This document shows, piece by piece, positions 33,454 to 50,655 of a stretch of 64,000 bases of DNA; positions within the stretch are counted from its first letter, which is position 1; each line of letters begins with the position of its first letter. A program made the position numbers and the translations under genes. This DNA is from Akkermansiaceae bacterium (GTDB taxonomy: Bacteria > Verrucomicrobiota > Verrucomicrobiia > Verrucomicrobiales > Akkermansiaceae): assembly GCA_026461385.1 (NCBI GenBank), contig JAPJNB010000043.1, positions 4,718-68,717 of the forward strand, read 5' to 3'. Below the pieces are notes generated by a model that was not told the DNA's origin, made no database searches, and was given only the letters and a program-made list of their open reading frames with translations.

Positions 33454-33627
33454 TGGTCCGTTTTCCGCTACCGAGCGTTTCATGCCCGGCGCTGATTTTT
33501 TTCCGGAGTTGTCCATGCGTGAAAGAGATAAGCTGCTGTTTGTTTCAATTTTCAACACAATTTCTCGCTAGGAGAAATATCCCATCAGGAGGGAGGCAAA
33601 GACCGAAGGGGTAATTTTCTGCCTCAT

Positions 33628-33641
33628 ACGAAACATTTCAT
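33628..33641 (-). promoter_or_regulatory. Candidate LacI operator upstream of lacI (autoregulation)
   Basis: Minus strand ATGAAATGTTTCGT, a 12/14 match to the ATGAAATGATTCAT site found three times downstream. Confidence 0.5.
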
Positions 33642-33938
33642 AGAAAATGGCAAGATTGGGCCGCCGAAACAGCAAGCCGCCCTTCAGTGGCGTGGAATAT
33701 TGCTCACGCCAAGTTTGGCCGTTTTGTCGTCGTAAATTTCAAAAACTTCCACGGTCAGGTGCATCATGGGATAAAACTCCCGCCTTGGGCGAGTGCCACG
33801 ATTCCATGGGCAGGCAGGAACCATTCGACCGTATTTTTGACTCGTTCGGCGGCTTTTCTTCCCAAATCGCCCCGCGTGAAGGCTTTCCGTAGCGGCGACG
33901 GTCCGAAACCGGATTTTTTGGCCGTTGGAATTTTTGCC

Positions 33939-33964
33939 TTGATTCAAACATGAAATGATTCATG
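33939..33964 (+). promoter_or_regulatory. Promoter/operator copy 1
   Basis: TTGATT-N5-ATGAAATGATTCATG upstream of the PEP-CTERM gene; the same layout recurs at 44196 and 48352. Confidence 0.7.
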
Positions 33965-34031
33965 TTGGATTCCTAGCTTCGCCAGTCAGCGAGCAATCCA
34001 AAGCAAAAACAACCTGAAAAACCCTTAGAAT

Positions 34032-34772
34032 ATGATCCCGAATATGAATATTAAGATTCTGACTCTTGCTGTAACCACCGTTGCCGCATTTTCACTCGTG
34101 CTCCAATCCGCCCACGCTGCTGTTTACTGGAACGGCAGCGTCAGCAGTGATTGGGCAGAAACGTCCAATTGGTCGGGCGGCCTGCCATCCACATCAGGTG
34201 CGGGCGATGCCATCATCAACCCCGGCTCACCCAATGTAAAACCAGTGATCAGCACCCCAGTGGCTGCCACCGTTGGGCAGACATACGTGTCCATTGGTGC
34301 GGGCTTGCAGGTTACCACGGGCGGAAGCTTGACCACCGTTAGTTTGATCACGGGGATCTGGGGCCATAGCGACGTCGTCGACGTCTCGGGGGGGAGCCTG
34401 ACTATCTCAAATAACTTGCTGCTGGGCTACTCTGGTTATGACGGAAAGATGAACATCTCCGGCGGCACGGTGACCGCCAACAATTTATCCATCAACATGG
34501 GTGGCGGAGCCAAGATGAACCTCGGCGGTTCGGGTGCCTTCATTGCGCCGGTCAGTAACCTCGGAAATATCAACTACTGGATCGCCAATAATGCCATCAT
34601 CGCGGGCAACGGTGCATCTGGATGGTCGGTCAACGTTGACACCACGAGCAATGCAGGCAACGTCGTTCTAACCGCAGTGCCGGAACCTTCGGTTTCCCTG
34701 CTGGCGGTTGGCGGAGCTTTGGGATGCTGTTTCCTGAGGTCGCGCCGGAAGAGCGCTTCCTTCCAGGATTGA
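34032..34772 (+). CDS. PEP-CTERM surface protein with a ~190-aa beta-rich domain
   Basis: Signal peptide ending SAHA; C-terminal VPEPS, a hydrophobic helix and basic RSRRK. Confidence 0.9.
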   Translation: MIPNMNIKILTLAVTTVAAFSLVLQSAHAAVYWNGSVSSDWAETSNWSGGLPSTSGAGDAIINPGSPNVKPVISTPVAATVGQTYVSIGAGLQVTTGGSLTTVSLITGIWGHSDVVDVSGGSLTISNNLLLGYSGYDGKMNISGGTVTANNLSINMGGGAKMNLGGSGAFIAPVSNLGNINYWIANNAIIAGNGASGWSVNVDTTSNAGNVVLTAVPEPSVSLLAVGGALGCCFLRSRRKSASFQD

Positions 34773-34836
34773 AATCAGCGATTTTCGACCCGCATCGAGT
34801 CCGCCCCACATCCCGAACGCTCGCTTTAACAACAAG

Positions 34837-37800
34837 ATGAGAATCACCCTCTTTTTCTCCGGCATCCGCTCCGGTTCGCGGCCTGTTTCAGGAGCCTCAC
34901 GGCAGAATGAAACTCTCAGCAGCCCGTCAGTTTTCAGTCATGAACTGAACGCTGTCGGAGGAGCTGAGGCATTGGCGGCGAATCGCAGCTTGGCGAGAAA
35001 ACCGAGAGTGAAGGCTGTGAAGCATTTTACGGGGTATTTCATCCGAGCCTTCTCGATCTTTCTCATGCTCACGCCTTCCGGATGGGCCGCCACGTCGACC
35101 TTGAGCACCAGCGGAGCATGGGCGACTGCGTCCAATTGGACACCGAGCGGTGTGCCGGGATCCACCTCCGATGTCGTGGTCAATGGGGCCAAATACGCCA
35201 TCGTTTCCACCAGTGCCGGCAGCATCAAGTCGATGGCCTTGGGGAATCAGTCGGGCGAGGGAGCCATCAACATGCGTGCGGGTGGCAACCTGACGGTGTC
35301 GAATGGGAGCGGGGTTTCTGTGGTGGTCGGTGGACCGGGAGCAGCTGGCAGCCAAGTAAGCCCCTACCCGGCGTACTACAGCCACGAAGATGGGAATTTC
35401 AGCACCACGGGGGACATGGTCGTCGGCACGAGCACGCTTTCTGGCCAAGCGTTTTTCAGTAAAGGCAAACTGAGCGTGGGTGGCAGGTTGAAAATTGGTG
35501 TCCAGACGGCAGGCGGCTCCGAGTTTAAAATCAACGGTGCCGGATCAGGTGTCTCGACTCTTGCCGTGAACGGGCTTGAAGTGGGCAGCAAGGGGACGCT
35601 GAACTTTGACTATCTGGGCGGCGCAGGAGTACTCGCGATTTCCGTCGCGAATCAGGTCAGCCTCAGCACCGGTTCGACCTTGATCGTTAGCAACGCCGCC
35701 GCTCTCCAAGCTGGGACATATAACTTGGTCAATGGAGGATCCATCTCCGGAACCTTTGGTGCCACGAACGTTTCGGGTCTGCCCACCTACATGTCTGCGG
35801 AAATTCAGTATGACGCCGCCAACGGGGATGTGAATTTGGTGGTAACCAATTCGATCACGGAATTTGACAATTATGATGGCGATGGATTGTGGTCGACGTC
35901 GCAGAACTGGAATCCCTTCTATCCCGATGCGACGTCTTTTGGAAGATTGCTGGCATTCGTGCAGGTCACGTCTGCGGTAGAAATTGGTTATCTCGAAATA
36001 GGAACCACACAGGCGAACTACGGGTTAAATCTGTGGGACGAGGCTGGATCACTGACCCTCAGCCGTGCAGGTGTTTCCTTGGTTGTTGGTGCCGCGAATA
36101 ATGCGGGCGGGGGTGCCAACTACCCAGGAGGAATCGGCTACCCAAATTACTATTCTCATGCCGCCGGAAGCTTGACCACGGTGGGCGACATGATCCTCGG
36201 CGCGAATGGCGCTAAGGTTGAGGCGTCTTTTTCTAGTGGATCGGTCAGCGTGGGAGGGACCCTCCGTTTGGGTTCATATCAAAGCTCAGGCGCATCGGTT
36301 TTTGAGTTAAGGGGCGGAGGCGGCACGCTTGCGACGCACGACCTCGAAGTGGGCGACGCGGGGAAACTTGTCTTCGACTTCATTGGCGGCGCTTCGTTGA
36401 AAATCATGCATGTCACCGGACAGGCTTCGATGATCTCGGGGGCTAAGCTCGCCATCAAAAACACATCACAGAACCCAGCCGCCATCACTCCCACCACCTA
36501 CGACTTGATCCAGGCCGACTCGATTGTCGGGACTTTCTCGCAGGTGGACTTTTCGGGATTCCCCTCGTCGGTTGTTCCTCGGATCGCGTATTCGGGCAAA
36601 AAAATTCAGTTGGTGGTTGAATCGGCTTCGGGTGCGCCCGTGGTGGATGCCGGAACTTCTCGGTTAAGCGGCTACAGCCGTGTCGCGCCCCTCGGCGCAG
36701 CGGGTTACTCGTTTGGAAGTGGGGCGGACGGGGAAGATATCTATTATTCCGATTATTCCGCCGGAACCATCACTCGGGTTTCGGGTGGAGTTTCCACCAC
36801 GCTGAAATCCAACTTGGTGGGGATTTATTCCTTAGCGGTGAAGGGAAATAAAATGTACTTCGCGCGTGAATATGACAGCAATTACGGAACCGCCAAAATC
36901 TTCGTCATGACCAAGAGCGGGGCCACTTGGGGAGATCCTGTGCAAGTGGTGGGTGGCTTGACGAGGCCGAGGCAGCTTTTTATCGAGAGTTCGGGCAGCC
37001 TGTTGTTAGCCGTGGAGGCATTGGCTCAGGGTCAAGGAGGAGCCATTCTCAGGATCACTCCGGCGACCGGTGCATCGACCACGTTGGTGACTGGACTTTA
37101 TGCACCGCAAGCGGTGGTTTCGGATGCTTCAGGCAATCTTTATTTCAACGAATACGGCAGCACCACGGCAGACGGCACTCCGACCTTATCGGGCAAGCTC
37201 TGGAAAATGGCCGCAGGGACAACCACCAAGACCCAACTCCTTGAGGGTCGCCGCCTCCGCGGATTGGCGTTGGTGCCGGGGAGTCCGGACCAGTTGGTTC
37301 AGCTGGCCGAGGCCAACAACAACGACCAAGGAAATTCCTCAACGACCTCCATCCTGACGACTTCGGGCACCCTGCTCCGGACGATCGAGGGGGTGGATTA
37401 TCCTCAGTTCACTGGGGTCACCGCCTCCGGGAATGTGGTGACCACCTGCCCGCGTGATCTGGCGCTCCTCAGCATTCTTCCGAACAGCAGTTCCGGATCG
37501 GATTCGGCCATCGCGCTTCGGACTGGGGTGGATTCATTTGCCTGCGTTCGCGGTCTCTCGTATCGGACCAGTGGAGAGGGAAGATTCCCCGTGACCCTCA
37601 CAGGAATGAAGGATGGTTCTTTGACATTCTATGTTTCCCCTAACTCTAACAGAAAATTTGCCGGCTGGATCCGAATGACTAAATCCCAGTGGCCAGGGAT
37701 ATCCACCAGCGAGCTGGTTTCGAATCCTGGATATTACGCTCTGCCCCAACCGGGAGTCCAGTGTGCGATTGGAACCTTGAATCGGCTGCAGATTTTTCCA

Positions 37801-39804
37801 CATCGCAGCAGGAACATTTCCCGCTGGCCGATGACGAATGTGGGAACCGCGCAAGAAGCGCCTCAGGTAGGTTTTTCTGAAGCTCCGGAAGCTTATCTTG
37901 CCTATGTCGAAATTTCAGAGCTTGCCATGACCCTTGCTTGGGATGGCGGCGGTGGTGCTGATGCGGCTTGGTCTACGGCGGCAAACTGGAGCGGAGATGG
38001 GTTGCCGGGTGCTTCCGACAACGTGTTGGCGAACGGCGGCGTCTATGTCACCAGTGCCGTGGGGCCGGTTGGCAATGTGGTGGTAGGCAATGCGGCCGGT
38101 AACGGTGCCCTCAACTTGGTTTCCCCAGGGAGCCTGAGCGCGGCATCCATCAAGATCGGCGAAGCAAACAATGCCGGAGGTGGCACTGGGTACCCGAATT
38201 ATTTCCGCGGAGATGGTGGAGCCATTACGACGACGGGCGACTTGGTGATCGGGGCGAGTGGTGCCAAAATCGATGGCGTCTACACATGGGGTAATATCAC
38301 CGTCGGTGGCGCCCTGAAGATCGGCGCTGGGTACGCGGATCCGGGCGGCTCAAGCTTATTGTTACGAGGCGCATCCAGCACGATCTCATCGAACAGTCTA
38401 ACGATTGGCGGCGGGGTGAAGTTGATCATGGACTTTATCGGAGGCAACTCGATGCGGACCTTGACGTCGACGGGAGCCGTGACCTTGGAGTCGGGATCGT
38501 CGATCAAGATTGTGGGCAATTCGAGCGTGGTGACGGGAAATAACCGGCGCTTGATCGATGGCGGCGCCGGTCAGTTGAGTGGAACATTTAGCAATGTGAC
38601 CTTTGAAGGGTTCTCATCCAACGTAGTCCCCAGTTTGGTCTATAACAGCACTGACGGAGATGTCTGGCTGGTGGTTTCCACTCGTGTGGTTTCTTGGGAC
38701 GCGGGTGGGGCAGCCGATCAGAAATGGTCCACGGTTGCAAACTGGAGCGGGGATGTCTTGCCGGGATCTGGGGACGATGTGTTGCTGAACGGTGGAGCTC
38801 AGGTGACAACGGCGGCGGGCCCGGTTGGGAACGTGGTGGTGGGAAATGCCAGTAGCAACGGAGCGTTGAACATGATTTCCCCGGGAAGTTTGACTGCTAC
38901 ATCCTTGACGATTGGGGCGGCCAACAACACCGGGGGAGGCACAGGATATTCGAACTACTTCTATGGGAATGGAGGCAATATTACGACGACGGGCGACTTA
39001 GTGATCGGGGCGAGTGGAGCGAAGATCGATGGCATCTACACATGGGGTAATATCAACGTTGGTGGCGCTCTAAAGATCGGCGCTGGGTACGCGGATCCGG
39101 GCGGCTCAAGCTTATTGTTACGAGGCGCATCCAGCACGATCTCATCGAACAGTTTAACGATTGGCGGCGGGGTGAAGTTGATCATGGACTTTATCGGAGG
39201 CAACTCGATGCGGACCTTGACGTCGACGGGGGCCGTGACCTTGGAGTCGGGATCGTCGATCAAGATTGTGGGCAATTCGAGCGTGGTGACGGGAAATAAC
39301 CGGCGCTTGATCGATGGCGGTGCCGGTCAGCTGAGTGGAACATTTAGCAATGTGACCTTTGAAGGGTTCTCATCCAACGTAGTTCCCAGTTTGGTCTATA
39401 ACAGCACCGACGGAGATGTTTGGCTGGTGGTGAGTGCTGGAGGAACCACGTTCGCATCTTGGTCAGGTTCTGCGGCTGCGGCAGACAGCATCTCCCTCAT
39501 GAAATATGGGGTCGGCGGGTCAGCGAGCCCCTCCGGGACTTCCGAAAAAATCGTCTTGTCCCTCGATACCACAAGCTTGTCGATCAGCGCGATTGTGCGG
39601 GTAGATGACGCCAAGCTGACGGTGGTGGGTCAGTCATCCACGAACTTGATTGGCTCTTGGACCGATCTATCCCAAAATCTAACAGGTTCCATTAGTTCCG
39701 ACCAGGCGGGAGTTCCTGCCGGTTGCCAACGGCGGATCTTCAGCATCAGCAAGGGGTCGAATCCGAAGATGTTCTTAAGACTCAAGGTCTTGATGAGCAA
39801 CTGA
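34837..39804 (+). CDS. Large secreted multidomain protein (beta-helix-like repeats, NHL/SMP30-like propeller, tandem 252-aa duplication)
   Basis: Open 1655-aa frame; probable start GTG 35008 before signal-like YFIRAFSIFLMLTPSGWA. Repeated W-S/A-T-A-x-N-W modules; propeller-like PQAVVSDASGNLYFNEY and PRQLFIESSGSLLLA; C-terminal FLRLKV tail. Confidence 0.85.
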   Translation: MRITLFFSGIRSGSRPVSGASRQNETLSSPSVFSHELNAVGGAEALAANRSLARKPRVKAVKHFTGYFIRAFSIFLMLTPSGWAATSTLSTSGAWATASNWTPSGVPGSTSDVVVNGAKYAIVSTSAGSIKSMALGNQSGEGAINMRAGGNLTVSNGSGVSVVVGGPGAAGSQVSPYPAYYSHEDGNFSTTGDMVVGTSTLSGQAFFSKGKLSVGGRLKIGVQTAGGSEFKINGAGSGVSTLAVNGLEVGSKGTLNFDYLGGAGVLAISVANQVSLSTGSTLIVSNAAALQAGTYNLVNGGSISGTFGATNVSGLPTYMSAEIQYDAANGDVNLVVTNSITEFDNYDGDGLWSTSQNWNPFYPDATSFGRLLAFVQVTSAVEIGYLEIGTTQANYGLNLWDEAGSLTLSRAGVSLVVGAANNAGGGANYPGGIGYPNYYSHAAGSLTTVGDMILGANGAKVEASFSSGSVSVGGTLRLGSYQSSGASVFELRGGGGTLATHDLEVGDAGKLVFDFIGGASLKIMHVTGQASMISGAKLAIKNTSQNPAAITPTTYDLIQADSIVGTFSQVDFSGFPSSVVPRIAYSGKKIQLVVESASGAPVVDAGTSRLSGYSRVAPLGAAGYSFGSGADGEDIYYSDYSAGTITRVSGGVSTTLKSNLVGIYSLAVKGNKMYFAREYDSNYGTAKIFVMTKSGATWGDPVQVVGGLTRPRQLFIESSGSLLLAVEALAQGQGGAILRITPATGASTTLVTGLYAPQAVVSDASGNLYFNEYGSTTADGTPTLSGKLWKMAAGTTTKTQLLEGRRLRGLALVPGSPDQLVQLAEANNNDQGNSSTTSILTTSGTLLRTIEGVDYPQFTGVTASGNVVTTCPRDLALLSILPNSSSGSDSAIALRTGVDSFACVRGLSYRTSGEGRFPVTLTGMKDGSLTFYVSPNSNRKFAGWIRMTKSQWPGISTSELVSNPGYYALPQPGVQCAIGTLNRLQIFPHRSRNISRWPMTNVGTAQEAPQVGFSEAPEAYLAYVEISELAMTLAWDGGGGADAAWSTAANWSGDGLPGASDNVLANGGVYVTSAVGPVGNVVVGNAAGNGALNLVSPGSLSAASIKIGEANNAGGGTGYPNYFRGDGGAITTTGDLVIGASGAKIDGVYTWGNITVGGALKIGAGYADPGGSSLLLRGASSTISSNSLTIGGGVKLIMDFIGGNSMRTLTSTGAVTLESGSSIKIVGNSSVVTGNNRRLIDGGAGQLSGTFSNVTFEGFSSNVVPSLVYNSTDGDVWLVVSTRVVSWDAGGAADQKWSTVANWSGDVLPGSGDDVLLNGGAQVTTAAGPVGNVVVGNASSNGALNMISPGSLTATSLTIGAANNTGGGTGYSNYFYGNGGNITTTGDLVIGASGAKIDGIYTWGNINVGGALKIGAGYADPGGSSLLLRGASSTISSNSLTIGGGVKLIMDFIGGNSMRTLTSTGAVTLESGSSIKIVGNSSVVTGNNRRLIDGGAGQLSGTFSNVTFEGFSSNVVPSLVYNSTDGDVWLVVSAGGTTFASWSGSAAAADSISLMKYGVGGSASPSGTSEKIVLSLDTTSLSISAIVRVDDAKLTVVGQSSTNLIGSWTDLSQNLTGSISSDQAGVPAGCQRRIFSISKGSNPKMFLRLKVLMSN
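37930..39431 (+). repeat. Intragenic tandem duplication, 756-bp period
   Basis: The W codons at 37939 and 38695 and the ATTACGACGACGGG starts at 38224 and 38980 are 756 bp apart. 38224-38675 versus 38980-39431 differ at about 16 positions by eye. Confidence 0.9.
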
Positions 39805-39871
39805 CCCATCAGCGGATGCACTCATCGATTCGTTTTCCCGGGGCGGGCGTAGGCCTCGGCCACTCAATTTC

Positions 39872-41770
39872 ATGTTAGACAGAAACACGACACTCATCAC
39901 GCTGGCCAATGCGCTCAAGCGACTCATCCATCCGAGGTGCATCCAGCTGTTGCTCCTTTGGATCGTCCTCATGCTTGCCTCCACCGAAACTCGCGCCCAA
40001 TCGCATCGGGCCGCGCAAGAGGTCGACTACAAGGTGGGATTTTTGGGTGCCCCCTGTCACCCGGAGGTGGAGTGGAATTCGGCGAATCTACAGCGCATGA
40101 AGGATCTGGGGTTCAATGTTCTGCAACTGAACATTGCTTGGGGTTATCGCCCCAATGATGAGGCCCTCAATCTCGAAGACGTGGTCGACTTGCCGATGGA
40201 AATTTCTCGCACGGCTGGCGACAAGAGCCGTGAGCCTATGCGAACTCCCGAAAGGATCGGCCGCCGGAGTGAAAAACTGCGGCAGCGGATCGACATCAGC
40301 CAGAAATTTGGATTTCGAACGATGTTCCATTTTGGAGCGCCGAATGTGTTGTATCCGCCGGAATCTCCGGGGGCACCTGGGGTGATTTTGGATCAGTGCA
40401 TTTCGGATCAAGCGACCCTCACAAGGTATATCATTCTCCTACGAGCGTTTCATGCCAAGTTCCCGGAGGTGGATGATCTGTTATGCTATACTTATGATCA
40501 AAATGCATGGCTCTGCAACGAGGTGGGAGCCTGTCGCAAGTGCCGTGGTGTTCCGTTGGCCAAGCGGGTTTCTAACTTCATCAACACTTTGGCTCGGACC
40601 TGGCGTGAACTCAACCCAGCGGGCACCTTGTTCTGGGAGCCTTGGGAACTTTCCGCAGGCCAGGCGTATCAGTCCGTTGATTTGCTCGATCCATCCTGTG
40701 TGGGGCTTTCGCTGCACTCCAACATTGCGGAAGTCCAAATTGCCTTCCCGGCGGACCGCTGGTTCAAAAACATGCTGACCAAAGCGGAGGAAAGGAAAAT
40801 ACCTGTCCTTGGGGAGTTGTGGACCGGCAGCCCCACCGAGGAGATGGAACCATTTCTGCACATCGCCACCCCGCTGGCCACGCTACGTGCTCTTCGCGCG
40901 GTGAACGAGGCGGGAAAGCTCAAAGGGATCAAAGAATACTATGGCAACGTGCCGGATCAAGAAGACCCTAACCTGCGCATGTCGGGCCTGTTCTTTAAAA
41001 ACCCAAACATCGGTGATGATGAGGCACTCGTGCAGTTGGCCTCGCCCTACGGTGACGCCGCTGAAGAGGTTGCGAAGGTTTGGAGGCTGACCTCCGAAGC
41101 GGTGGAAATGTACCCGTGGGACGTTTCCTGGTTGGCTCGGGAAGTCGGACGAAGTACCCCCAAGCACGCGCTGAGCGCAGCGATTCTGAAGGGCGCCAGT
41201 TGGCAGACGCCGAGTTGGCAGGCCAACCGCAGAGTCGACTTCATGAGAACCGACGAGACAGCGGCACCAAACTTCTGGATGTGTGAAGATGTTCAATTGC
41301 GGTTTGAGCAAACGGCCCATAAACTCGATGCCAGCATTCAGGCGGCCGAGGCCGTGCAACGCAAAGTCCCGGAAATCTATCAGAAAGATTTCGCCAAGAG
41401 CATCGAGGAACTGAAGGCCTTCCGTGTCCGCGTGCTGGCCTATGCCTACCACCTTCGAGAGACAAATCTAACCAATCTAATGCGCGGGGACGTCCAGCAG
41501 GGACTTGAGTTGAATCAAGAAAACATCCGGGCACTCAGAGAAGTGATGTTGAAAGATCAGCAAAACATGGGAAGCAAGGAACCGCTCGGGACTGCGATCC
41601 AGATGCTTGATGCGGATCTTAAAAAATTTCTAACAACCTACTTCCTTCCTTGGTCAGAATCCACTAAAAATCAGGATTGGGCTGAATGGGGGAGCGCCGC
41701 GAACTGGACGATCACATCGCCCAACGAGTTCTTTGAAACACACATAAATGACCATGGGAAAAACGATTAA
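39872..41770 (+). CDS. Secreted protein of unknown function, TIM-barrel glycoside-hydrolase-like; paralog of the C-terminal part of 44319-46676
   Basis: Signal-like IQLLLLWIVLMLASTETRA; LQRMKDLGFNVLQLNIAWG resembles the first strand/helix of clan GH-A-like barrels; YTYDQNAWLCNEVGACRKC. Confidence 0.6.
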   Translation: MLDRNTTLITLANALKRLIHPRCIQLLLLWIVLMLASTETRAQSHRAAQEVDYKVGFLGAPCHPEVEWNSANLQRMKDLGFNVLQLNIAWGYRPNDEALNLEDVVDLPMEISRTAGDKSREPMRTPERIGRRSEKLRQRIDISQKFGFRTMFHFGAPNVLYPPESPGAPGVILDQCISDQATLTRYIILLRAFHAKFPEVDDLLCYTYDQNAWLCNEVGACRKCRGVPLAKRVSNFINTLARTWRELNPAGTLFWEPWELSAGQAYQSVDLLDPSCVGLSLHSNIAEVQIAFPADRWFKNMLTKAEERKIPVLGELWTGSPTEEMEPFLHIATPLATLRALRAVNEAGKLKGIKEYYGNVPDQEDPNLRMSGLFFKNPNIGDDEALVQLASPYGDAAEEVAKVWRLTSEAVEMYPWDVSWLAREVGRSTPKHALSAAILKGASWQTPSWQANRRVDFMRTDETAAPNFWMCEDVQLRFEQTAHKLDASIQAAEAVQRKVPEIYQKDFAKSIEELKAFRVRVLAYAYHLRETNLTNLMRGDVQQGLELNQENIRALREVMLKDQQNMGSKEPLGTAIQMLDADLKKFLTTYFLPWSESTKNQDWAEWGSAANWTITSPNEFFETHINDHGKND

Positions 41771-44120
41771 CTCGTCTCAGTTTGCAGCCGTGAGATTTTC
41801 GATTTTTCCAGTTCTAGCCGCCATCGTGACGGCAGCCGTGCAGGTGCAGGACGTGGCAAGCGCGACCGATTCGGCGGAAGCTGCTTGGGGGAGATCCTTG
41901 GTGGATGCGGCTTTTGTGAAGGAGGGCATGGATCGTTTTCGCCATCCTCAATACCAGTACGAATGCCTTGGCCTTGGGGGGACGGTCATGCGGGTGGGAC
42001 CCGATGGGTTGACCCAGCAGGGTGCAGTGCTCACGCCGGCGAAGGGTTTTCTCAGGCACGTTCCCTATCTCTCCTACCAGTACTGGTGGGATGAGGAGGG
42101 ACATCGCCATCTGCCGTTTGATCTTGGCGGCGGATACGGGGGAAAAATGGAACCTGGCGAGGTGACTGCTTTCCGGCACCATCTGGATATCTCTAACGGT
42201 TTTCTCGAGATCGATTTGGGAATCAAGGTGCCCGGCGAGGGCTCGAGTTCCTTTCAAAGCCATCGGGAGATGTTTGTTACGCAGGAAGGAATTCTCGTGA
42301 TTCGGGTCACGGATTCGGCGGGTGCAACCATGCCATTTCGAATGCGCGTGGGGATCAATCAGAATGTCAGAATTTATCTTAACGAAGGGGTCTACGCGAA
42401 AGCGCACGATCCTTGGGTGGGCAAGGGCTCGGGCAAGACGCAGGGGCTGTTAGTCATGGCGAAGCGACCCAAGTCATGCACCGCCACTCTCGGCATGGCC
42501 CTAGAAGGCACCGAAATTTCTGTGGATGCGAAATCGTTGGAGCTTGGAGCTACGAAGCCTAGCAAGAGCGTGACGTTCTACATCGCCCCCGGTTCATCGT
42601 ATGAGAACGATGACCCCGCGTCGTCTGCATGGAAAAAGGCGGAGGCGGCCAAATCCCGCGGCTTTGAAACGCTTCGCAAGGAGACCGCTCATTGGTGGAG
42701 GGATTATTACGAGCGATCCACGGTTTGCATTCCTGACCCGGCGTTGCAGAAGTGGTTTGCGAGATCCACCTACTACATGGGGGTCTTTTCCGGCAACACC
42801 GATGTCCCACCCGGATGCAATGGGACAAGCATCGAGAGCTTTGCCGGCGCCGTCTGCCCAGAGTATGACTTGGTGCTCAATCAGATGGCGTTGCTTTACG
42901 GCAATCACTTCGATGAAGCGCGCCGCGTGGTGGGATGGCTGGAGCGGGTGCTGCCTCGAGCGGAAAAATATGCGACGGAGGGACTTACGCTGCATCAGAC
43001 TTCGGTCAAATATGCGGGAGGGGCCAAGTTTGGCCCGCTGATGGGCTACGATGGCACCGTGATGGTTCCGCCGACCATCGGTGAGGGGATTTGGGCGCAC
43101 GAGGATTTTTCGGGCAACAACGCGGCGCTCATGGCACTGAACTATGTCGATTGGAGCGGTGATGAGCGCTGCGAGCCACTGGCGAAGAAAATCCTCCGGG
43201 AGACGACCCAGATTTCCGTCGAGGACCTCGAGTGGCGTGCGGACTTTCAATCCTACCTCAACCGATTCATGCCGGCGACGGTGCAGCAGGCGGGCACGTT
43301 GTATGGTCTGCGTGAGTCCATTCGGCGCGGAGTTGCGGAAGCGGGTTGGGCGGAAAAGGCAGACAAAGTCCTGATTCCCAAGGCCGACTTCGAAGGGAAA
43401 AAACGTTTAGCGGTGGGACCGGGCCAGAATCTGGAGAAAAACTGCGGGGATGCCACTTGGCTGAGTCCCGCGTGGTGCTATCGGGTGGTGGCAGATGATG
43501 ATCCGATTGTCAGCGACAGCTATGCTTTGTTTCGCACGTCGAAGACTGGGGATTACATTTTCAACAACGGCTGGATGGGGGTCATCGCATCGAAGCTCGG
43601 TGAGGGCGATGAAGCGCTCCAATGGGCGAGAAACTTTTTGCGGCCAGACGTCACCCTGTTTGACGATACCTGTTTTGGTGAGATCATCAACGGCTCCGAG
43701 GACTTCAAGAAGACTCCCGAGGTGGCCGCCCATGCCGCCTTGATTTGCAACCTCACGCAGATGCTGCTGGATCCCGACAACGAAGCGTCCCTCTCGATCT
43801 TTCCCGCAATCCCGGCGGGGTGGGAAAAACCGGGTTTGGGTTTTACTCAGCTGGCCGCGAAGGGAAACATTTTAGTTTCGGCTGAATTTAGCACGAATCG
43901 AGTCTCTGTGGCGCTGGAGAATCGTTCGGACCATGATTGTGTCCGGAGCCTGCGCGTGCGACTGCCGAAGGGCACGACGAGCCTGCGCCATCCGGAGAAG
44001 GAGGTTCAAGTGAAAGACGGTAGGGCAGTAATTTCCTCCATCAAGCTTCCGGCAAAATCAAAGGTGACTCTTAGCTTCGAGCCGTTGGTGGCGTCACCAA
44101 ATCCTCGAGAGAAAGACTAA
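41748..44120 (+). CDS. Secreted glycoside-hydrolase-like protein, (alpha/alpha)6 barrel, distantly GH95/GH65-like
   Basis: N-terminal FRHHLDISNGFLEI beta domain; ETAHWWRDYYERSTVCIPDPALQKWFARSTYY; C-terminal SLSIFPAIPAGW...LAAKGNILVSA. This layout is typical of GH95/GH65. Confidence 0.55.
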   Translation: MTMGKTINSSQFAAVRFSIFPVLAAIVTAAVQVQDVASATDSAEAAWGRSLVDAAFVKEGMDRFRHPQYQYECLGLGGTVMRVGPDGLTQQGAVLTPAKGFLRHVPYLSYQYWWDEEGHRHLPFDLGGGYGGKMEPGEVTAFRHHLDISNGFLEIDLGIKVPGEGSSSFQSHREMFVTQEGILVIRVTDSAGATMPFRMRVGINQNVRIYLNEGVYAKAHDPWVGKGSGKTQGLLVMAKRPKSCTATLGMALEGTEISVDAKSLELGATKPSKSVTFYIAPGSSYENDDPASSAWKKAEAAKSRGFETLRKETAHWWRDYYERSTVCIPDPALQKWFARSTYYMGVFSGNTDVPPGCNGTSIESFAGAVCPEYDLVLNQMALLYGNHFDEARRVVGWLERVLPRAEKYATEGLTLHQTSVKYAGGAKFGPLMGYDGTVMVPPTIGEGIWAHEDFSGNNAALMALNYVDWSGDERCEPLAKKILRETTQISVEDLEWRADFQSYLNRFMPATVQQAGTLYGLRESIRRGVAEAGWAEKADKVLIPKADFEGKKRLAVGPGQNLEKNCGDATWLSPAWCYRVVADDDPIVSDSYALFRTSKTGDYIFNNGWMGVIASKLGEGDEALQWARNFLRPDVTLFDDTCFGEIINGSEDFKKTPEVAAHAALICNLTQMLLDPDNEASLSIFPAIPAGWEKPGLGFTQLAAKGNILVSAEFSTNRVSVALENRSDHDCVRSLRVRLPKGTTSLRHPEKEVQVKDGRAVISSIKLPAKSKVTLSFEPLVASPNPREKD

Positions 44121-44195
44121 CCACTGGCCCGGAGCCTTACGAACCGCATTTGACGAGGCGAATCCCGCGGAAAAGCTGGCGGATGAAAATTCTTC

Positions 44196-44221
44196 TTGAC
44201 CCTTATATGAAATGATTCATG
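44196..44221 (+). promoter_or_regulatory. Promoter/operator copy 2
   Basis: TTGACC-N5-ATGAAATGATTCATG. Confidence 0.7.
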
Positions 44222-44318
44222 TTGAGCTGGAGCAAGCTAGGTTTACCCAATTTGGACTCACGCAAAAACCACCCGAAAAACCCCGCCCCGCATCCGGAAC
44301 CATCGACTTACCAACAGA

Positions 44319-46676
44319 ATGAGAAACTACAGAATAAAAAGTTATAGAATGAAAAACGATAGAATTGCCACGGTCGCAGCGACGGCATTCGCATTGCTTC
44401 CGGCAGTCCTTCAAGCCGATGTTTTCTGGAACGGCGCGGCGAGCGGCGATTGGTCTGATGCCGCGAATTGGAAGGGCGGCCTGCCATCTCAGGCGGATGC
44501 GGGAAACGTGGTCATCAATCCGGGGTCACCTTTTGCGGAACCGGTCGTCAAGACGCCGGGCGTGATTACGGCAGGGCAAACCTATCTATCCATTGGTGCC
44601 AGTTTGAGCATCGCGAACGGCGGAGAAATGACCACGACCGATTTGGTCACTGGGAGCTGGGGGGATAGCTCGACGGTATCCGTCAAGGGCGGAACCCTGA
44701 ACATCCGTGGCATTCTGAATTTGGGGGCCGGTGGTCATGATGGTGATGTGAAGGTCTCGGGTGGTTTGGTTAGAGCATCCGGTCTATCCATCAATGGTAC
44801 CAGTGGAGCGACTCTGGACATCTCTGACTCCGGGTCCGTCATTCTGCCAGCCAGCCAGCTGGACAACATCGGTCACTGGGTGGAAAGCAACAGCATCACC
44901 GCCAACGGCGGAGCCGCTGGATGGTCCTTGCGCATCGATTCCAAGAGCCAACCCGACAAGGCCATCATCAAAGCGGTGTTCACCCCGCCGCTCACCGATC
45001 TCATCACGGGATGCAAACACAAGCAGCCCGAAGGTGGAAAACCCAAGGATTGTTGCCGGGGAAATTATCAATATTTCGTAGGAATCGTCGGAAATCCGTT
45101 GGTGCCGGAAATCAGATGGAGCGATGATGAACTCGAGAAAATCAAGGATCTCGGCGTCAACATGGTGCAGCTCAGCATCGCATGGGGCGGCAAGCCTGCC
45201 AATGAAGTCCTCAATCTCGAGGATCTCGATGATCCTGCACAGCGGGAGAAATTCGCATTCCGGATCTCACAGGCGAAAAAGCATGGACTCAAGACGCTCG
45301 CCCATTTCGGCATCCCGCGGGCAGTGAACGCGAATCCCGTGCGCCCCGCGTGCATTCTCGATTCGGAGGTGTGTGCGAAATATACGGCAAGGATCAAGGC
45401 GTTCATGACAGACTTCCCCGGGGTCGATGATGTCCTCGTTTACACCTTCGACCAGCAGGCGTGGCTGTGCAGTGAATTCGGCCCATGCCCACGCTGCAGC
45501 GGCATCCCCGTCGGCGAGCGCCTGCCGGCCTTCCTCGACATGCTCAACGACGCCATGCGTTCGGTTCGGCCAAGCTCCAGACTCTGGTGGAAACCGTGGG
45601 AGTTGTCGCGGGGCCAAGTGGTGACGGTTCTCGAGCGGGTCAAGGCCGAGGGCTTCGGCTTGGCACTCAACCCGTCCACCAGCAACGAGGTCTATCCATT
45701 CAACGACCGATCCTTTGCCTCCGATCTGGGCGTGAAACGCATGGTGCGCTCCGCCTATGAGCGCGGGATTCCCGTACTGGGCGAGTTCGATCACACATTC
45801 TACAAGCCATCTTACGCAATCGAGGACTTCTTCCCACGCCTGATCTTCGAACAAATGCAGGGTTGGAAAGGAATGGAGGGGATTGTCGGCGTGAAGGAAT
45901 ACTTTGGTTTCGCTCCATCCACGTTCTCTGTTAATTGCGCCATGCTCAAAGCGTGGATGAGGTCGCCGGATGCCAAGCTCGACACGCTGCTCCAAGAAAT
46001 CGTCACGCCATACGGCAAGGCTGCGGCTCCGCACATGATCGCAGCATGGGAATATGTTGCTCAATCGGTTGAAGCTTTCCCGTGGGACACCACCTATCTA
46101 ATCGGCCCGATGGGACTGGACCGCGGAAGTGACGGCTCACACGACTGGAAACCCGTGACGATCTCGAGCGGCACGTGGGACACGCCGATCTGGAAGACGA
46201 ACCGCCGTGGGAATTTCATGCTGACCGATGCACCCAAGGCGCATCCGTGGCTGTTTGAAGATGCCGGGCTCCGGTTGGAAGATTCCGCCGCCCTCGCTTT
46301 CAAGGCAGCGGACTTGTTCGAAAAAGCCATTGCCGCCGGTGGGGAACGCGCCGATGATATCCGCAAGCAACTGGAAATCACCCGCAGGATGGCCCGCTCC
46401 ATCCGCATGAAATCTCTCCATTTCCTCCAGACTCTTGCCACCCAAGACGCACGCATGGTTCAGCATGATCCAAAACAATTCCCGATCGTCATCCAGCGCC
46501 TCGAAGGCCTGCTGAAGAGGGATGTGAAAAACCAAGGCGGGCGTGCCGAGGTGGCTCAGAAACTCGCCGAGCTGCAGAGCAATCCAAAGGCGTGGCTGAG
46601 CACCAACTACCTGCCCTTCGAATACGAGACCAAGACGGTCATCGATTGGAGTCGCTGGATACCGCGCCAAGACTGA
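44319..46676 (+). CDS. Secreted fusion: shared ~190-aa N-terminal domain plus the unassigned TIM-barrel-like enzyme domain
   Basis: VFWNGAASGDWSDAANWKGGLPS...VINPGSP matches 34032 and 48448; VGIVGNP...IKDLGVNMVQLSIAWG...NLED and YTFDQQAWLCSEFGPCPRC match 39872. Confidence 0.8.
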   Translation: MRNYRIKSYRMKNDRIATVAATAFALLPAVLQADVFWNGAASGDWSDAANWKGGLPSQADAGNVVINPGSPFAEPVVKTPGVITAGQTYLSIGASLSIANGGEMTTTDLVTGSWGDSSTVSVKGGTLNIRGILNLGAGGHDGDVKVSGGLVRASGLSINGTSGATLDISDSGSVILPASQLDNIGHWVESNSITANGGAAGWSLRIDSKSQPDKAIIKAVFTPPLTDLITGCKHKQPEGGKPKDCCRGNYQYFVGIVGNPLVPEIRWSDDELEKIKDLGVNMVQLSIAWGGKPANEVLNLEDLDDPAQREKFAFRISQAKKHGLKTLAHFGIPRAVNANPVRPACILDSEVCAKYTARIKAFMTDFPGVDDVLVYTFDQQAWLCSEFGPCPRCSGIPVGERLPAFLDMLNDAMRSVRPSSRLWWKPWELSRGQVVTVLERVKAEGFGLALNPSTSNEVYPFNDRSFASDLGVKRMVRSAYERGIPVLGEFDHTFYKPSYAIEDFFPRLIFEQMQGWKGMEGIVGVKEYFGFAPSTFSVNCAMLKAWMRSPDAKLDTLLQEIVTPYGKAAAPHMIAAWEYVAQSVEAFPWDTTYLIGPMGLDRGSDGSHDWKPVTISSGTWDTPIWKTNRRGNFMLTDAPKAHPWLFEDAGLRLEDSAALAFKAADLFEKAIAAGGERADDIRKQLEITRRMARSIRMKSLHFLQTLATQDARMVQHDPKQFPIVIQRLEGLLKRDVKNQGGRAEVAQKLAELQSNPKAWLSTNYLPFEYETKTVIDWSRWIPRQD

Positions 46677-46687
46677 CAATCCATTCC

Positions 46688-47407
46688 ATGACGGACGCCA
46701 TGCGAAATCAATCGAAACCCACCCAAGGCTTCACGCTCGTCGAGTTGCTGATCGTCATTGCCATCGTGGCGGTGCTGGCGGCGGTTACCATGTCGGTCTC
46801 ACGCAGGATGATGGCATCCGCAAATGAAACGGTGTGCGCGGCCAATCTTCGCGGCCTGGCCACAGCCCTCAACAGTTATGCTGCGGAAAACAACGGGGTT
46901 TTCCCCGTCTCCGACCAAGGCAACCGATCACCAAGCAACTGGATTGTGGCGCTTCTGGACGGCGAGTATCTCAACGCAAAGCAAGGGGACACCCAGCGCT
47001 CTTTCGTCAACAGCCGGGGGAAGAACGGCCTCTTCTGCCCCGCCGCAATCCGCGTGGCGAAGCCTTTGGACGGCAACTGGAACACCTATGCAATGAACGT
47101 TCAAGCAGGCGGCTGGTATCAATCCGCAGGCCAGGCACCGGCCGCACGCTTGCCGCGTGTCCAGTATCCGGCGGAAACCGCTCTCGTCATGGACGGCTGC
47201 AGGGTCAGCGGGAATTATTACGTGACGACGGTGGGCCGCGCCGACTGGTTTCCCGAGATGGTGCATCCACCCGAACTGCTCAACCAACCCAAGGATCTGA
47301 ATCGGGGTGCCAACGTGGCTTTTGTCGACGGCCATACGGAATTTCGCAAAGTTTCAAAAATTCCCACCGATACCACCGGAGTTTTTTGGAGTGGCATCAA
47401 GCCTTGA
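46688..47407 (+). CDS. Prepilin-type N-terminal cleavage/methylation domain protein with an H-X-DG tail
   Basis: KPTQG|FTLVELLIVIAIVAVLAA; ETVCAANLRGL; C-terminal GANVAFVDGH. Start ATG 46688 or 46700 rather than 46592. Confidence 0.88.
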   Translation: MTDAMRNQSKPTQGFTLVELLIVIAIVAVLAAVTMSVSRRMMASANETVCAANLRGLATALNSYAAENNGVFPVSDQGNRSPSNWIVALLDGEYLNAKQGDTQRSFVNSRGKNGLFCPAAIRVAKPLDGNWNTYAMNVQAGGWYQSAGQAPAARLPRVQYPAETALVMDGCRVSGNYYVTTVGRADWFPEMVHPPELLNQPKDLNRGANVAFVDGHTEFRKVSKIPTDTTGVFWSGIKP

Positions 47408-47447
47408 ATGAGACTCACGAGATGAATCTAACGGAAAAAATGCGATT

Positions 47448-48308
47448 ATGATGAATCAGATCCGTTCGATGGCCATCGGGGCGACACTGTCATTGATCCA
47501 ACCCGCATCCGCGGAACTTCCCATGCTGGAACAGCCATGGCTCGGCTACTTCGCAGTCGCACAGGAACGAAACTTTCAGTTTTTGTTCAGCTCGAAAGGC
47601 GGCTTCAACCTCATGGTCCTCGATCATCAAGGCGCTCCGATTCAGCAATCCATCGGCCTGCAATTCCTCGGATTGGAAACTCTCCCAGATGGCAGCATCA
47701 AGGAATTGCCGATGGCATTGGACACCTTTGAATCCTCGGATCCACCCACCGCCAAGCTCAAGAAGACGGTTTTTAGATTCAAATTGACCGATCAGGCGAC
47801 CGGCCAAGCGATCGGCCAACCTACCATGGAGGGCACCATCGAGATCATCAGCGGGACCGTTCTTGCCAACGCTCGGATCATCGACAAGGGAGCATCCGAT
47901 AAAAACCCCATTCAACCGGTGATCCGTACGATCTTCACGGCCTTCTACGTGAATGAGAACATTCACAAAGAATCTTGGGACAGGAAACAAGTCAAAGAGT
48001 TCGAAAAGCGGATCGGCGCAGATTCCGTAACCTTAAAACACCTCGATGAGAAACGGGTCAAACTGGTCTGCGTTGATAAGACCGATCCAAAATCCAAGGA
48101 GGTGAACGGCGGCGGCAGTTCCTTGGCTGAGGTGGAGATCAGTTTCTATCAGAAGCGGAAAATTGAGCTTCTTGCCGCCCCCAACTCATCGCTCACCCTT
48201 TGCAATGCGGGCCCGGCTCCACTCCACCATGGCTTCTGGTTCCAATGGTCCGCCGATGCCGCCAAAGACCCCGATGGCAAAGCCAAACTCGCGCTCAGGA
48301 TCCAATAG
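47448..48308 (+). CDS. Secreted hypothetical protein
   Basis: Signal peptide AIGATLSLIQPASA; 286-aa open frame co-oriented after the pilin-like gene; no motif recognised. Confidence 0.7.
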   Translation: MMNQIRSMAIGATLSLIQPASAELPMLEQPWLGYFAVAQERNFQFLFSSKGGFNLMVLDHQGAPIQQSIGLQFLGLETLPDGSIKELPMALDTFESSDPPTAKLKKTVFRFKLTDQATGQAIGQPTMEGTIEIISGTVLANARIIDKGASDKNPIQPVIRTIFTAFYVNENIHKESWDRKQVKEFEKRIGADSVTLKHLDEKRVKLVCVDKTDPKSKEVNGGGSSLAEVEISFYQKRKIELLAAPNSSLTLCNAGPAPLHHGFWFQWSADAAKDPDGKAKLALRIQ

Positions 48309-48351
48309 CCCCAACTGACCCAAGGTCGGATCGAAGATTGGAATTTCTAAC

Positions 48352-48377
48352 TTGACCACGATATGAAATGATTCATG
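48352..48377 (+). promoter_or_regulatory. Promoter/operator copy 3
   Basis: TTGACC-N5-ATGAAATGATTCATG. Confidence 0.7.
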
Positions 48378-48447
48378 GTTGCCGCTGTTGATTCGCCTCC
48401 AATCGTAAAATTCCGCCAAAAAACGAACACTCACAAACCCAAAACAC

Positions 48448-50655
48448 ATGAACCCCAAACGCAAGAACACGGCCATTGCATTGACCACCATGGCTCTCAT
48501 TTCACTATCTTTTGAATCCGCCCGCGCCGCCGTTTACTGGAACGGTAGCGTCAGCAGTGATTGGGCAGAAGCCTCCAACTGGACAGGCGGCTTGCCATCC
48601 ACATCGGGTGCGGGCGATGCCATCATCAACCCCGGCAGCTCACCCAATGAGAAGCCCGTGATCAGTTCCGCAGTGGCTACCACCGTTGGGCAGACTTACG
48701 TGTCCATCGGTGCGGGTTTGCAGGTTACCACGGGCGGAAGCTTGACCACCGTTAGTTTGATCACGGGGATCTGGGGCGACAGCAACGTGGTCGATGTCTC
48801 GGGAGGAACCCTGACCATCTCAAATAACCTGCTGCTGGGCTACGGCGGCTATGATGGGAAAATCAATATCTCTGGCGGAACGGTGACTGCCAACTATCTA
48901 TCCATCAACACGACACGCGGAGCCAAGATGAACCTCGGTGGCACAGGTTCCTTCATCGCGCCCGCCAGCAACCTCGGCAACATCAACTATTGGATCGCAA
49001 ACAATGCGATTATCGCCGGCAACGGCGCAGCCGGATGGTCGGTGGTGGCTGATACTACTAGCCTCTCGGGCAAGGTGATCCTTACCGCCTTCAATCCGAA
49101 CAATGTTTTCACGGCTGCCAACAACAACAACTACGCCGAGAGTGGCAATTGGAACAACGGGCTCGTTCCGACCTCTGCCCAGTCCGCCTTCATCAACCAG
49201 CACCGCACGGCGGAACTCAGCACCAACCCGTCGCCGAACCAGCCGGGAAGCCTCTACGTCGGTCAGGGAACCGGCAGCGAAAGTGGCACATTGGAGGTCT
49301 CCTCAGCCGGAGTTCTGAGCCCGGGCAATCTGCTCATCGGTCGCGACGGATCCAGCTCTGGAACGATCAACCAATCGGGCGGCACGGTCACGGTGACCGG
49401 CGGGACGTTCGGCATCAGCAGCAATTCTAATGGCGCAGGCAGTTATCACTTGTCCGGTGGCACCCTTGCGGCGACTTCAGCCCCCCTGTGGCTGGGCTAC
49501 GGCACCGGAACTACCACCGGCACCGGCAACTTCACGATGAGCGGCGGCACGCTGAGCCTCGGCTCCTATTTCAGCGCAGCCTTCGCCAGTGGCACAAAAG
49601 CCAATGTGTCATTCAGCGGCGGCAACGCGACGATCGCCGGCAGCCTCACGGTCGGACGTCAGGGCAAGGGGCTTGCCGAAATTTCCGGCACCGCCTACGT
49701 CAACCCCGCCACGCTGCAAGTCGTCGAGTCCGGTGAGGGTGCCGCCGATTCCACGCTGACCGTCAGTGGAGGAACGCTCGCCGTGAGCCGCCAGATCAAT
49801 GTCGGCAATTCCGTCGATACCGGAGTGGCATCTAGCATGGTCATCAGCGGAGGCGCAGTTACTTGGCACGCGGACGGCCAGACCTCCGGATTGTTCAGCG
49901 TTTACAGCGAGGTGAAGGTCAGTGGCAATTCGGCAACGATCGGCAGTAACGCGTCGACCGATGCTCTCTTCAACGTTCGCGCCACTGGTAAACTGCGCTA
50001 TCAACTTGCTGCCAATGGCTCGGTTGCGTTGATCAACGTGCCCAACGCCACGATGGGAATTGCCCAAGGCGCGCAGTTGATCATCGACGGCTCGGCACTC
50101 TCACTCGGCGCTGGTACTTACTCGATCACCTTGGTGGATCACAATGGCTACTCGGCTGCCGCTGCTTTCGGTGCCACGAGCATGTCACACAGCTTTGTTG
50201 GCTTCGGACTGACTTGCACACCGACGATCAGTTACGACGCGTCTGCCATCACCTTGCATCTATCGGTGGGCGGTGGCTCCGACTATGATTCGTGGAAAAG
50301 CACCAACAATTTGACTGGCGGACCAAATGCCGACGACGATGGAGATGGTGTGAAAAACTCCGACGAATACGCTTTCGGCCTCAATCCGAAGTCCGGAAGC
50401 TCGGCCAACCCGATCAGTTCTGCGGTCGACAAGGCGACCGGCATCTTCAAGTACACCCGTCGCAAGCAGTCGCTCACCGGGGTAGCTTACACCTATGAGT
50501 CGTCCACCACGCTTACGGGCACATGGCCGGCCTTCACTCCAAACTCTGCTACCTCTAACAATGGCGATCCCATCGAAGAAATTACCGTCGATGTGCCAGA
50601 CGCGTTGCTGACCCATCCCGCGCTGTTTATCCGCGTGAAAGCCGTCCAGCCATGA
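48448..50655 (+). CDS. Secreted beta-helix-like protein with the shared N-terminal domain and a C-terminal DxDGDG/sorting-like domain
   Basis: N-domain nearly identical to the PEP-CTERM gene (AVYWNGSVSSDWAE...NYWIANNAIIAGNGA); Gly/Thr/Ser-rich SGGTL repeats; tail DDDGDGVKNSDEYAFGLNP...FIRVK. Confidence 0.85.
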   Translation: MNPKRKNTAIALTTMALISLSFESARAAVYWNGSVSSDWAEASNWTGGLPSTSGAGDAIINPGSSPNEKPVISSAVATTVGQTYVSIGAGLQVTTGGSLTTVSLITGIWGDSNVVDVSGGTLTISNNLLLGYGGYDGKINISGGTVTANYLSINTTRGAKMNLGGTGSFIAPASNLGNINYWIANNAIIAGNGAAGWSVVADTTSLSGKVILTAFNPNNVFTAANNNNYAESGNWNNGLVPTSAQSAFINQHRTAELSTNPSPNQPGSLYVGQGTGSESGTLEVSSAGVLSPGNLLIGRDGSSSGTINQSGGTVTVTGGTFGISSNSNGAGSYHLSGGTLAATSAPLWLGYGTGTTTGTGNFTMSGGTLSLGSYFSAAFASGTKANVSFSGGNATIAGSLTVGRQGKGLAEISGTAYVNPATLQVVESGEGAADSTLTVSGGTLAVSRQINVGNSVDTGVASSMVISGGAVTWHADGQTSGLFSVYSEVKVSGNSATIGSNASTDALFNVRATGKLRYQLAANGSVALINVPNATMGIAQGAQLIIDGSALSLGAGTYSITLVDHNGYSAAAAFGATSMSHSFVGFGLTCTPTISYDASAITLHLSVGGGSDYDSWKSTNNLTGGPNADDDGDGVKNSDEYAFGLNPKSGSSANPISSAVDKATGIFKYTRRKQSLTGVAYTYESSTTLTGTWPAFTPNSATSNNGDPIEEITVDVPDALLTHPALFIRVKAVQP

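Follow-up and report, generated by a model that had tools for sequence, protein, structure and literature searches.

The locus and its repeated element

The window analysed here, i.e. the whole stretch of 64,000 nucleotides (C192:4718-68717) taken from a 3.79-Mb, 273-contig assembly of a lake Akkermansiaceae bacterium, contains a gene cluster of ~18 kb next to a gene for a LacI-family regulator. One short palindromic sequence lies upstream of three successive groups of genes in this cluster and, as a weaker variant, upstream of the regulator gene (lacI) itself. We consider it very likely that the LacI-family repressor encoded next to it (32410-33516, minus strand) uses this repeated sequence as its operator. 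The genes concerned, with protein lengths in amino acids (aa), are the following.

32410-33516, minus strand: gene for a LacI-family regulator of 368 aa with helix-turn-helix (HTH) LVDVAKAAGVATNTASMVLN and hinge YRPNRIALAVKK (Pfam, structures)
34032-44120, plus strand: unit 1, encoding a 246-aa PEP-CTERM-like protein and 1655-, 632- and 790-aa proteins without assigned family (open reading frames (ORFs), Pfam/NCBIfam)
44319-48308, plus strand: unit 2, encoding a 785-aa protein, a prepilin-type N-methyl / H-X9-DG protein and a 286-aa protein (ORFs, Pfam/NCBIfam)
48448-52139, plus strand: unit 3, encoding a 735-aa protein and a 495-aa sulfatase (ORFs, Pfam/NCBIfam)

Most proteins of the cluster, namely those of 1655, 632, 790, 785, 735 and 286 aa, have no Pfam or PDB match. 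At its far end, the 3' end of the sulfatase gene (plus strand) overlaps that of a convergent MFS_2 transporter gene (minus strand) by 44 bp (52096-52139); this transporter gene and a gene for an AraA/FucI-like isomerase adjoin an AraC-family gene (55237-56139), with no LacI site there.

A search of the window finds the 15-mer ATGAAATGATTCATG on the plus strand at 33950-33964, 44207-44221 and 48363-48377, preceded in each case by a hexamer and 5 nt (TTGATT at 33939, TTGACC at 44196 and at 48352). A preliminary description of this DNA had already noted the pattern TTGA(T/C)(T/C)-N5-15-mer with identical spacing in what we call promoters P1, P2 and P3, and it proves to be unique to this locus: the whole assembly contains three exact copies of the 15-mer, all of them here, with a chance expectation of ~0.007 (both strands, our own arithmetic), and the sole match with one mismatch, on contig C230, has no TTGA hexamer upstream of it. 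Two independent metagenome assemblies of this organism, L019 and L020, likewise contain P1 and encode a 100% identical LacI protein. The arms alone, ATGAA-N4-TTCAT, occur three times in the window versus 0.07 expected and 15 times in the genome versus 1.6 expected from base composition; the matches outside the locus were rejected as regulon members, since they lack the promoter context and several lie on probable ATGAA start codons.

An ungapped alignment of the three window copies with three copies from a close relative, the Akkermansiaceae metagenome-assembled genome (MAG) G041, defines the conserved unit as an 18-bp pseudo-palindrome, ACATGAA-ATGA-TTCATGT, with 7-bp arms. Conservation thus reaches two bases further per side (A at -2, and G/T after the core), and the flanks outside the conserved blocks are essentially unrelated between copies. 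The consensus is AYATGAA-nYGn-TTCATRT. The 18-mer of P1 is symmetric at 7/9 base-pair positions and falls, as an even palindrome, within the 16-22 bp range; the earlier count of 10 matches in 12 positions to the LacI-type TGAAACGTTTCA is arithmetically correct. The four sites in the window are as follows (bits from the matrix scan described below).

33948-33965, plus strand: P1 operator ACATGAAATGATTCATGT, 28.9 bits
44205-44222, plus strand: P2 operator ATATGAAATGATTCATGT, 29.1 bits
48361-48378, plus strand: P3 operator ATATGAAATGATTCATGG, 27.1 bits
33626-33643, minus strand: lacI-side operator variant CTATGAAATGTTTCGTAT, 12/14 core positions, 24 bits

The core of the lacI-side variant (33628-33641), listed in the preliminary description with the same 12/14 agreement, reads ATGAAATGTTTCGT on the minus strand, i.e. 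the strand of lacI, and lies ~110 bp upstream of position 33516. From the core sites of P1, P2 and P3 to the ATG of the respective first gene the distances are 82 bp (34032), 112 bp (44319) and 85 bp (48448).

Nine distinct sites served to build a position-weight matrix, with which the whole genome was scanned, a check that the preliminary description had proposed. Only the four locus sites reach 24-29 bits (the 99.99th percentile of the genome is 6 bits), and the next best match (C233:43914, 22 bits) falls mid-way in a 222-aa ORF and was discarded as a regulon member. In the araC/isomerase/MFS region and in the gaps within units the same scan found no operator site. As the scan shows no comparable promoter site elsewhere in the genome, the regulon is local.

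The adjacent regulator and its orthologues

The LacI protein matches the Pfam families LacI, Peripla_BP_1, Peripla_BP_3 and Peripla_BP_4 (PF00356 1.9e-10, PF13377 5e-33, PF00532 2e-22) and aligns over its full length to the structures of CcpA, RbsR and PurR, its closest solved relatives. Its best NCBIfam models are RbsR, CytR, CcpA and PurR, with a best score of 193 bits versus an equivalog cut-off of 382; scores so far below the cut-offs mean that, judged by its sequence, the protein has no orthologue among the named regulators. The assignment to the LacI family had been made before and stands, whereas the start then placed at 33453 does not: the most likely start is the ATG at 33516, because a database record holds the exact 368-aa protein, the additional stretch (33454-33516) is coding in the window as a basic 21-aa N-terminal tail (MDNSGKKSAPGMKRSVAENGP) ahead of the HTH, and orthologues have comparable N-terminal extensions. 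The recognition helix reads NTASMVLN, and a narrow regular-expression screen of the genome found no other gene with an NTASM helix. The weaker operator copy upstream of lacI implies, as far as sequence can tell, that the regulator controls its own synthesis.

Scanning a genome collection for TTGAYY-N5-15-mer returned one other genome, G041. Its 19.8-kb contig (L018 = G041:C399) is syntenic with the locus (identities of 83% and 93% for the two proteins compared). At three promoter sites, in differing flanks, it has the 15-mer, exact in two cases and with one mismatch (a final A) in the third, and it also has a lacI-side variant (L018:693-707) whose 15-mer is identical to that of the window. The G041 counterpart of the 735-aa gene (L018 16053-18336) is split between two ORFs that overlap, a sign of either a frameshift or an assembly error. 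Single exact 15-mer matches in six further genomes (G225, G141, G094, G186, G090 and G178, among 200) come without the TTGAC hexamer and the leader and were treated as chance, and the G010 locus, with a 42% identical LacI homologue, has no site.

Altogether, seven further loci with orthologues of the regulator were compared (G041, L021, L022, L039/L040, L041, L042 and L043), with LacI identities of 61-100% where the protein is full-length and of 61-83% in L021, L022, L039/L040, L041, L042 and L043. The recognition helix NTASM is common to all; in the six last-named, distant loci it reads NTASM(V/I)LN, with RPNRxALA(V/I) as the hinge. Every orthologue locus contains ATGAA-N4-TTCAT sites, 1-4 in each of the six distant loci, which together have about a dozen distinct ones. 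Where neighbouring genes are readable, their products are of the same kinds as in the window and include PEP-CTERM proteins (63% identical in L021), prepilin-like N-methyl proteins, sulfatases and large proteins without known function. Several sites conform to TTGACN-N4/5-site-CATRYW and precede PEP-CTERM, sulfatase-neighbouring or other unknown genes; those listed below have the same architecture as in the window.

L021: TTGACG-tagac-ACGAAACGCTTCATGTT
L041: CTTGACC-gtgat-ATGAAATGTTTCATGTT
L042: TTGACA-tggtt-ATGAAACGATTCATACA
L042, second site: TTGGCT-tccat-ATGAAACGATTCATATT
L021, second site: TTGACT-tcac-ATGAAGTGATTCATATA
L039: TTGATC-tcat-ATGAAATGATTCGTAAG

In 21 other loci, including ~212 kb around paralogues of 27-47% identity, no site with exact arms was found. 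The 47% paralogues differ in helix (NTAST) and hinge, and a search for their own motif, made as a specificity control, found no inverted repeat in their upstream regions. Thus, the family-like form of the site, its confinement to this locus including the region upstream of lacI, and its co-occurrence with LacI orthologues all speak for the earlier proposal that these sites constitute the regulon of the adjacent LacI, and there is good reason to expect that this protein binds them.

Could a different factor bind the site, with LacI uninvolved? Its 5-N4-5 spacing is FNR-like (cf. TTGAT-N4-ATCAA), genes for cyclic-nucleotide-binding (cNMP-binding) proteins adjoin lacI (29710-32371), and an AraC-type regulator is encoded nearby (55237-56139), so that a CRP/FNR-type protein tied to the neighbouring cyclic AMP (cAMP) module or the AraC-type protein come to mind. 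The cNMP-binding proteins, however, have no DNA-binding domain, a global regulator would be expected to have sites elsewhere in the genome, where none were found, and of the regulator genes only lacI recurs in the listed neighbourhoods of L039-L043, which lack the cNMP genes and the AraC gene. Moreover, the site spans about -29 to -12, which is where a repressor would bind, rather than -41.5, where class II CRP/FNR proteins activate; AraC is disfavoured as the binder because AraC-family sites are usually direct repeats. We regard another binding factor as very improbable and retain the LacI-family protein.

With respect to a possible effector, genes for RhaT symporters lie at the far end of loci L039, L040, L042 and L043, an AraA/FucI-like isomerase gene adjoins lacI in L043, and the 47% paralogues (L044 and L045) lie beside genes for RhaA, a GH78 rhamnosidase, a SASA esterase and sulfatases. 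Gene neighbourhood thus hints at a rhamnose-type deoxy-sugar.

Promoter architecture

Upstream of each of the P1-P3 operators there is a conserved CTTGAYY together with an A/T-rich block (GGAATTTCT and variants), and these elements can be read as promoters as follows.

33927-33935, plus strand: P1 upstream A/T element GGAATTTTT (from the sequence; the same kind occurs at tRNA promoters)
33939-33944, plus strand: P1 -35, TTGATT (sequence, alignment)
33961-33966, plus strand: P1 putative -10, CATGTT (16-bp spacer; overlaps the right operator arm)
44185-44193, plus strand: P2 upstream A/T element GAAAATTCT (sequence, alignment)
44196-44201, plus strand: P2 -35, TTGACC (sequence, alignment)
44218-44223, plus strand: P2 putative -10, CATGTT (read from the sequence)
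48340-48348, plus strand: P3 upstream A/T element GGAATTTCT (sequence, alignment)
48352-48357, plus strand: P3 -35, TTGACC (sequence, alignment)
48374-48379, plus strand: P3 putative -10, CATGGT (read from the sequence)
33648-33653, minus strand: putative -35 of the lacI promoter, TTGCCA (6 nt upstream of the operator core; kept in G041)

The first three bases of each putative -10 are the last three of the operator core, i.e. the operator covers the spacer and overlaps the -10. The preliminary description had placed the operator between the -35 and a weak -10; a weak -10 does lie at a spacing of 16 bp, but an operator of 18 bp that overlaps it is not strictly between the two. On the lacI side the layout matches that of P1-P3 but is directed toward lacI (minus strand), where the candidate -10 TATGAG would imply a 19-bp spacer.

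What kind of promoter this could be is suggested by the tRNA genes of the same genome. The composite AAATYY-N1-6-TTGNNN, in detail AAAT(T/C)(T/C)-N1-6-TTG(A/C/T)(C/A)N, occurs upstream of 11/42 tRNA genes versus 0.9% of random 100-nt windows and lies 41-63 nt (in one case 85 nt) upstream of the mature tRNA 5' end; P2 and P3 fit it exactly, and P1 deviates solely by its TTGATT. The tRNA -10s, at ~17 bp, are themselves weakly TATAAT-like and include TACACC, TAATCA, TATTCG, CATTCT and CATACA. Sixteen bp after the -35, the window and orthologous sites have CATGTT, CATGGT, CATAGT, CATATT and CATACA, with CATATA also found at orthologous sites, so that the putative -10s of P1-P3 resemble, in sequence, CATTCT and CATACA of the tRNA promoters. 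Since P1-P3 match this tRNA promoter architecture, the evidence points to housekeeping-type (sigma-70-like) promoters, with predicted transcription starts near 33973, 44230 and 48386; we place less confidence in the exact assignment of -10 and start site than in LacI binding. Three other readings were tried and dropped: with TGAAAT as an extracytoplasmic function (ECF) sigma factor -35, nothing is conserved 16-17 nt downstream; a sigma-54 consensus is absent; and a MerR-type spacer of 19 bp yields no -10.

A further group of sites bears on this geometry. In six orthologous loci, the operator ATGAATCAATTCAT forms the very beginning of the gene divergent from lacI (MNQFI..., followed by a signal peptide), and TTGAC(A/T) is conserved 28-32 nt upstream of these start-codon sites, which are located as follows.

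L039:9775-9788
L041:9874-9887
L042:9755-9768
L043:9841-9854
L021:5794-5807
L022:3216-3229

In L039, a second identical site lies 139 bp from the start-codon site. In these orthologous loci, the operator may be situated at +1 of a leaderless mRNA. Such an operator at or just after the start (L021, L022, L039, L041, L042 and L043), together with the weakness of the -10 and a start position that is only predicted, is what one would cite in favour of LacI binding with a different geometry, i.e. with transcription starting further upstream and the operator acting as a roadblock in the leader, or with an alternative sigma factor reading TTGACC. Against this, a fixed distance of 4-5 nt separates TTGACN from the operator at about a dozen sites, taken from six different genomes, the promoters resemble those of the tRNA genes, and the conservation 16-17 nt downstream expected of an ECF-type promoter is missing, as is a sigma-54 consensus. 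A different geometry therefore appears improbable to us, and we continue with an operator that occupies the spacer and part of the -10.

The leaders downstream of P1-P3 are A/C-rich (GCAAAAACnACCnGAAAAACCC, CCAAAAAACGAACACTCACAAACCCAAAACAC; 34003-34031, 44262-44318 and 48420-48447), a block that they have in common with G041, and none of the three contains a Shine-Dalgarno-like GGAGG before the start codon of the first gene. A hairpin of the leader RNA right after the operator (TTGGATT..AATCCAA at P1, TTGGGC..GCCCAA at P2 of G041), with covariation-like differences, was rejected, as its 3' arms are not in homologous columns. Folding of the six window and G041 leaders gave no consistent structure (z-scores from -1.9 to +1.6), and an Rfam search of the window gave no match.

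Just 5' of P1, at 33890-33938, there is a relic of ~25-45 nt (CGGCGACGGTCCGAAACCGGATTT...) that resembles the terminus of a repeated element (TGTCGGCGACGGTTCAAAACCGGATTTGTCGCC...), which is found at several contig ends (C254:72-95, C76:73-96 and 5275-5298, C67:73-96, C148:12502-12525). Relative to the syntenic G041 locus, the window has ~230 bp more between P1 and the lacI-side site; this extra stretch may be an insertion scar.

Cassette duplication, the proposed switch and known systems

The gaps between the three units are 198 and 139 bp versus at most 67 bp within them, and prediction on the plus strand found no terminator-like site at either unit boundary (44120-44196 and 48308-48352). P1-P3 may thus act as internal promoters with read-through possible, and the safest description is that of three co-regulated internal promoters on one co-directional array plus an autoregulated lacI; of the three operons proposed earlier, the three promoters hold, and separate operons are unproven.

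An N-terminal domain of ~215 aa is common to the first genes of all three units, with identities of 73% and 43% to the version in gene 1, and among the copies the operator is identical and the flanks have diverged. Judged from this pattern, P1-P3 are copies of one cassette, comprising promoter, operator, leader, signal peptide and N-terminal domain of ~215 aa, fused to different downstream genes. P2 of G041 precedes a second copy of the PEP-CTERM gene (L018 11213-11946), so the promoter travels with the 5' end of the gene. Cassette duplication, attested by this extra copy as well as by the shared domain, raises the question whether the identical 15-mers are a passive relic of common descent or gene conversion without regulatory function. 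This is the explanation that we find hardest to credit, because the sequence right around the site is nearly randomised between the copies, yet 15-18 positions have all been kept, because the site is palindromic, because a variant exists upstream of lacI, outside of the cassette, and because related sites are found at the same promoter position where LacI is merely 61-65% identical.

An operator of the LacI family would account for these features, and a survey of that family (PMC4052901) provides a yardstick: the sites are even palindromes of 16-22 bp for 1251/1303 factors, and >75% of them precede the start codon by 30-140 bp; 72% of the factors regulate their own genes, and ~90% are local. 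Our case fits this description on every point except the centre, where 1173/1251 even-palindrome motifs have a CG pair, 49 another pair and 29 a degenerate one (PMC4052901). The TG centre of all four window sites in place of the family-consensus CG is thus one of several points that weigh against a LacI operator in a housekeeping promoter; CG is present at some orthologous sites (ACGAAACGCTTCAT in L021, ATGAAACGATTCAT twice in L042). Positions 8-11 are also asymmetric and have the same orientation at every copy. In the regulator, the hinge YRPNRIALAVKK, compared with YRPNAVARGLASKK of CcpA, has Val and not Leu at the Leu56 lever position, where orthologues have Val or Ile and several 47% paralogues have Leu. 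CATGTT and CATGGT match TATAAT at only 3/6 positions (including A2 and T6, with the 16-bp spacer), and a scan with a generic promoter consensus did not call P1-P3, because their -10 is weak. Furthermore, the three window and three G041 copies are related by descent and do not amount to six independent observations, and conservation of the start-codon (MNQFI) sites could in part be a coding constraint.

In the mechanism that we infer, a LacI dimer on the operator would cover the spacer and the -10 and thereby exclude RNA polymerase. Release of the repressor by an inducer, for which a sugar liberated from the glycan degraded by this locus is the most likely candidate, would turn on the three units simultaneously, and the weaker operator copy upstream of lacI would make the repressor self-limiting. 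This is almost certainly a textbook sugar-inducible on/off switch of the LacI type, neat and unsurprising to the specialist. Its interest lies mainly in the controlled genes, most of which have no known function: one repressor with an 18-bp site at four promoters offers a testable regulatory handle on a ~18-kb cluster of mostly uncharacterised proteins, and the inducer would point to the glycan degraded, which is probably sulfated and contains deoxy-sugars. In addition, AAATTYC, TTGNCN, a spacing of ~16-17 bp and a weak CAT/TA-type -10 make up one of few explicit promoter models for Verrucomicrobiota. More speculatively, and with considerable doubt on our part, the regulator might represent an undescribed LacI specificity class, characterized by an NTASM helix, Val/Ile for the lever Leu and a TpG-centred 18-bp operator, which would control surface or secreted glycan-active proteins of freshwater Verrucomicrobiota via a portable cassette in which promoter, operator, signal peptide and N-terminal domain are combined, with an operator at the start codon of seemingly leaderless mRNAs in relatives.

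Among known systems, RbsR and PurR have in common with the regulator described here the combination of HTH and periplasmic-binding fold, an even palindrome and local, probably self-regulated control. The operator of E. coli RbsR is GCGAAAC|GTTTCGC and that of PurR is ACGCAAAC|GTTTGCGT; here, too, the dyad is adjoined by a GAAA(T/C) half-site. In contrast to RbsR and PurR, the centre is TG and not CG, and Val replaces the leucine lever of the hinge. The recognition helix, NTASM, also differs from SYQTVSR in LacI and SMATVSR in CcpA. Among solved structures, CcpA (1rzr/1zvv) is closest in sequence (E 3e-45), and its cre site is likewise a pseudo-palindrome, of 14-16 bp, at which binding over the core promoter represses. 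CcpA, however, is global and needs HPr-Ser-P as corepressor, whereas here there are four sites at one locus.

With respect to the controlled functions, the nearest parallels are RhaR of Actinomycetales, RhmR of Chloroflexus and RhiR, LacI-family regulators of rhamnose-oligosaccharide loci (PMC3870299). These are also local, recognize a palindromic motif and govern uptake and breakdown of rhamnose-containing glycans, a link to rhamnose that is made here by gene neighbourhood only; their motif has 20 bp versus 18 bp here, in a comparison by description, and in the window the MFS_2 transporter and AraA/FucI-like isomerase genes come under a separate AraC gene. As to the geometry, a lac operator placed between -35 and -10 reportedly gives the tightest repression (Lanzer and Bujard, 1988). 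As in their promoters, the operator fills the spacer and abuts the -10 region; theirs, however, were engineered coliphage/lac hybrids, whereas the arrangement described here is natural and occurs threefold.

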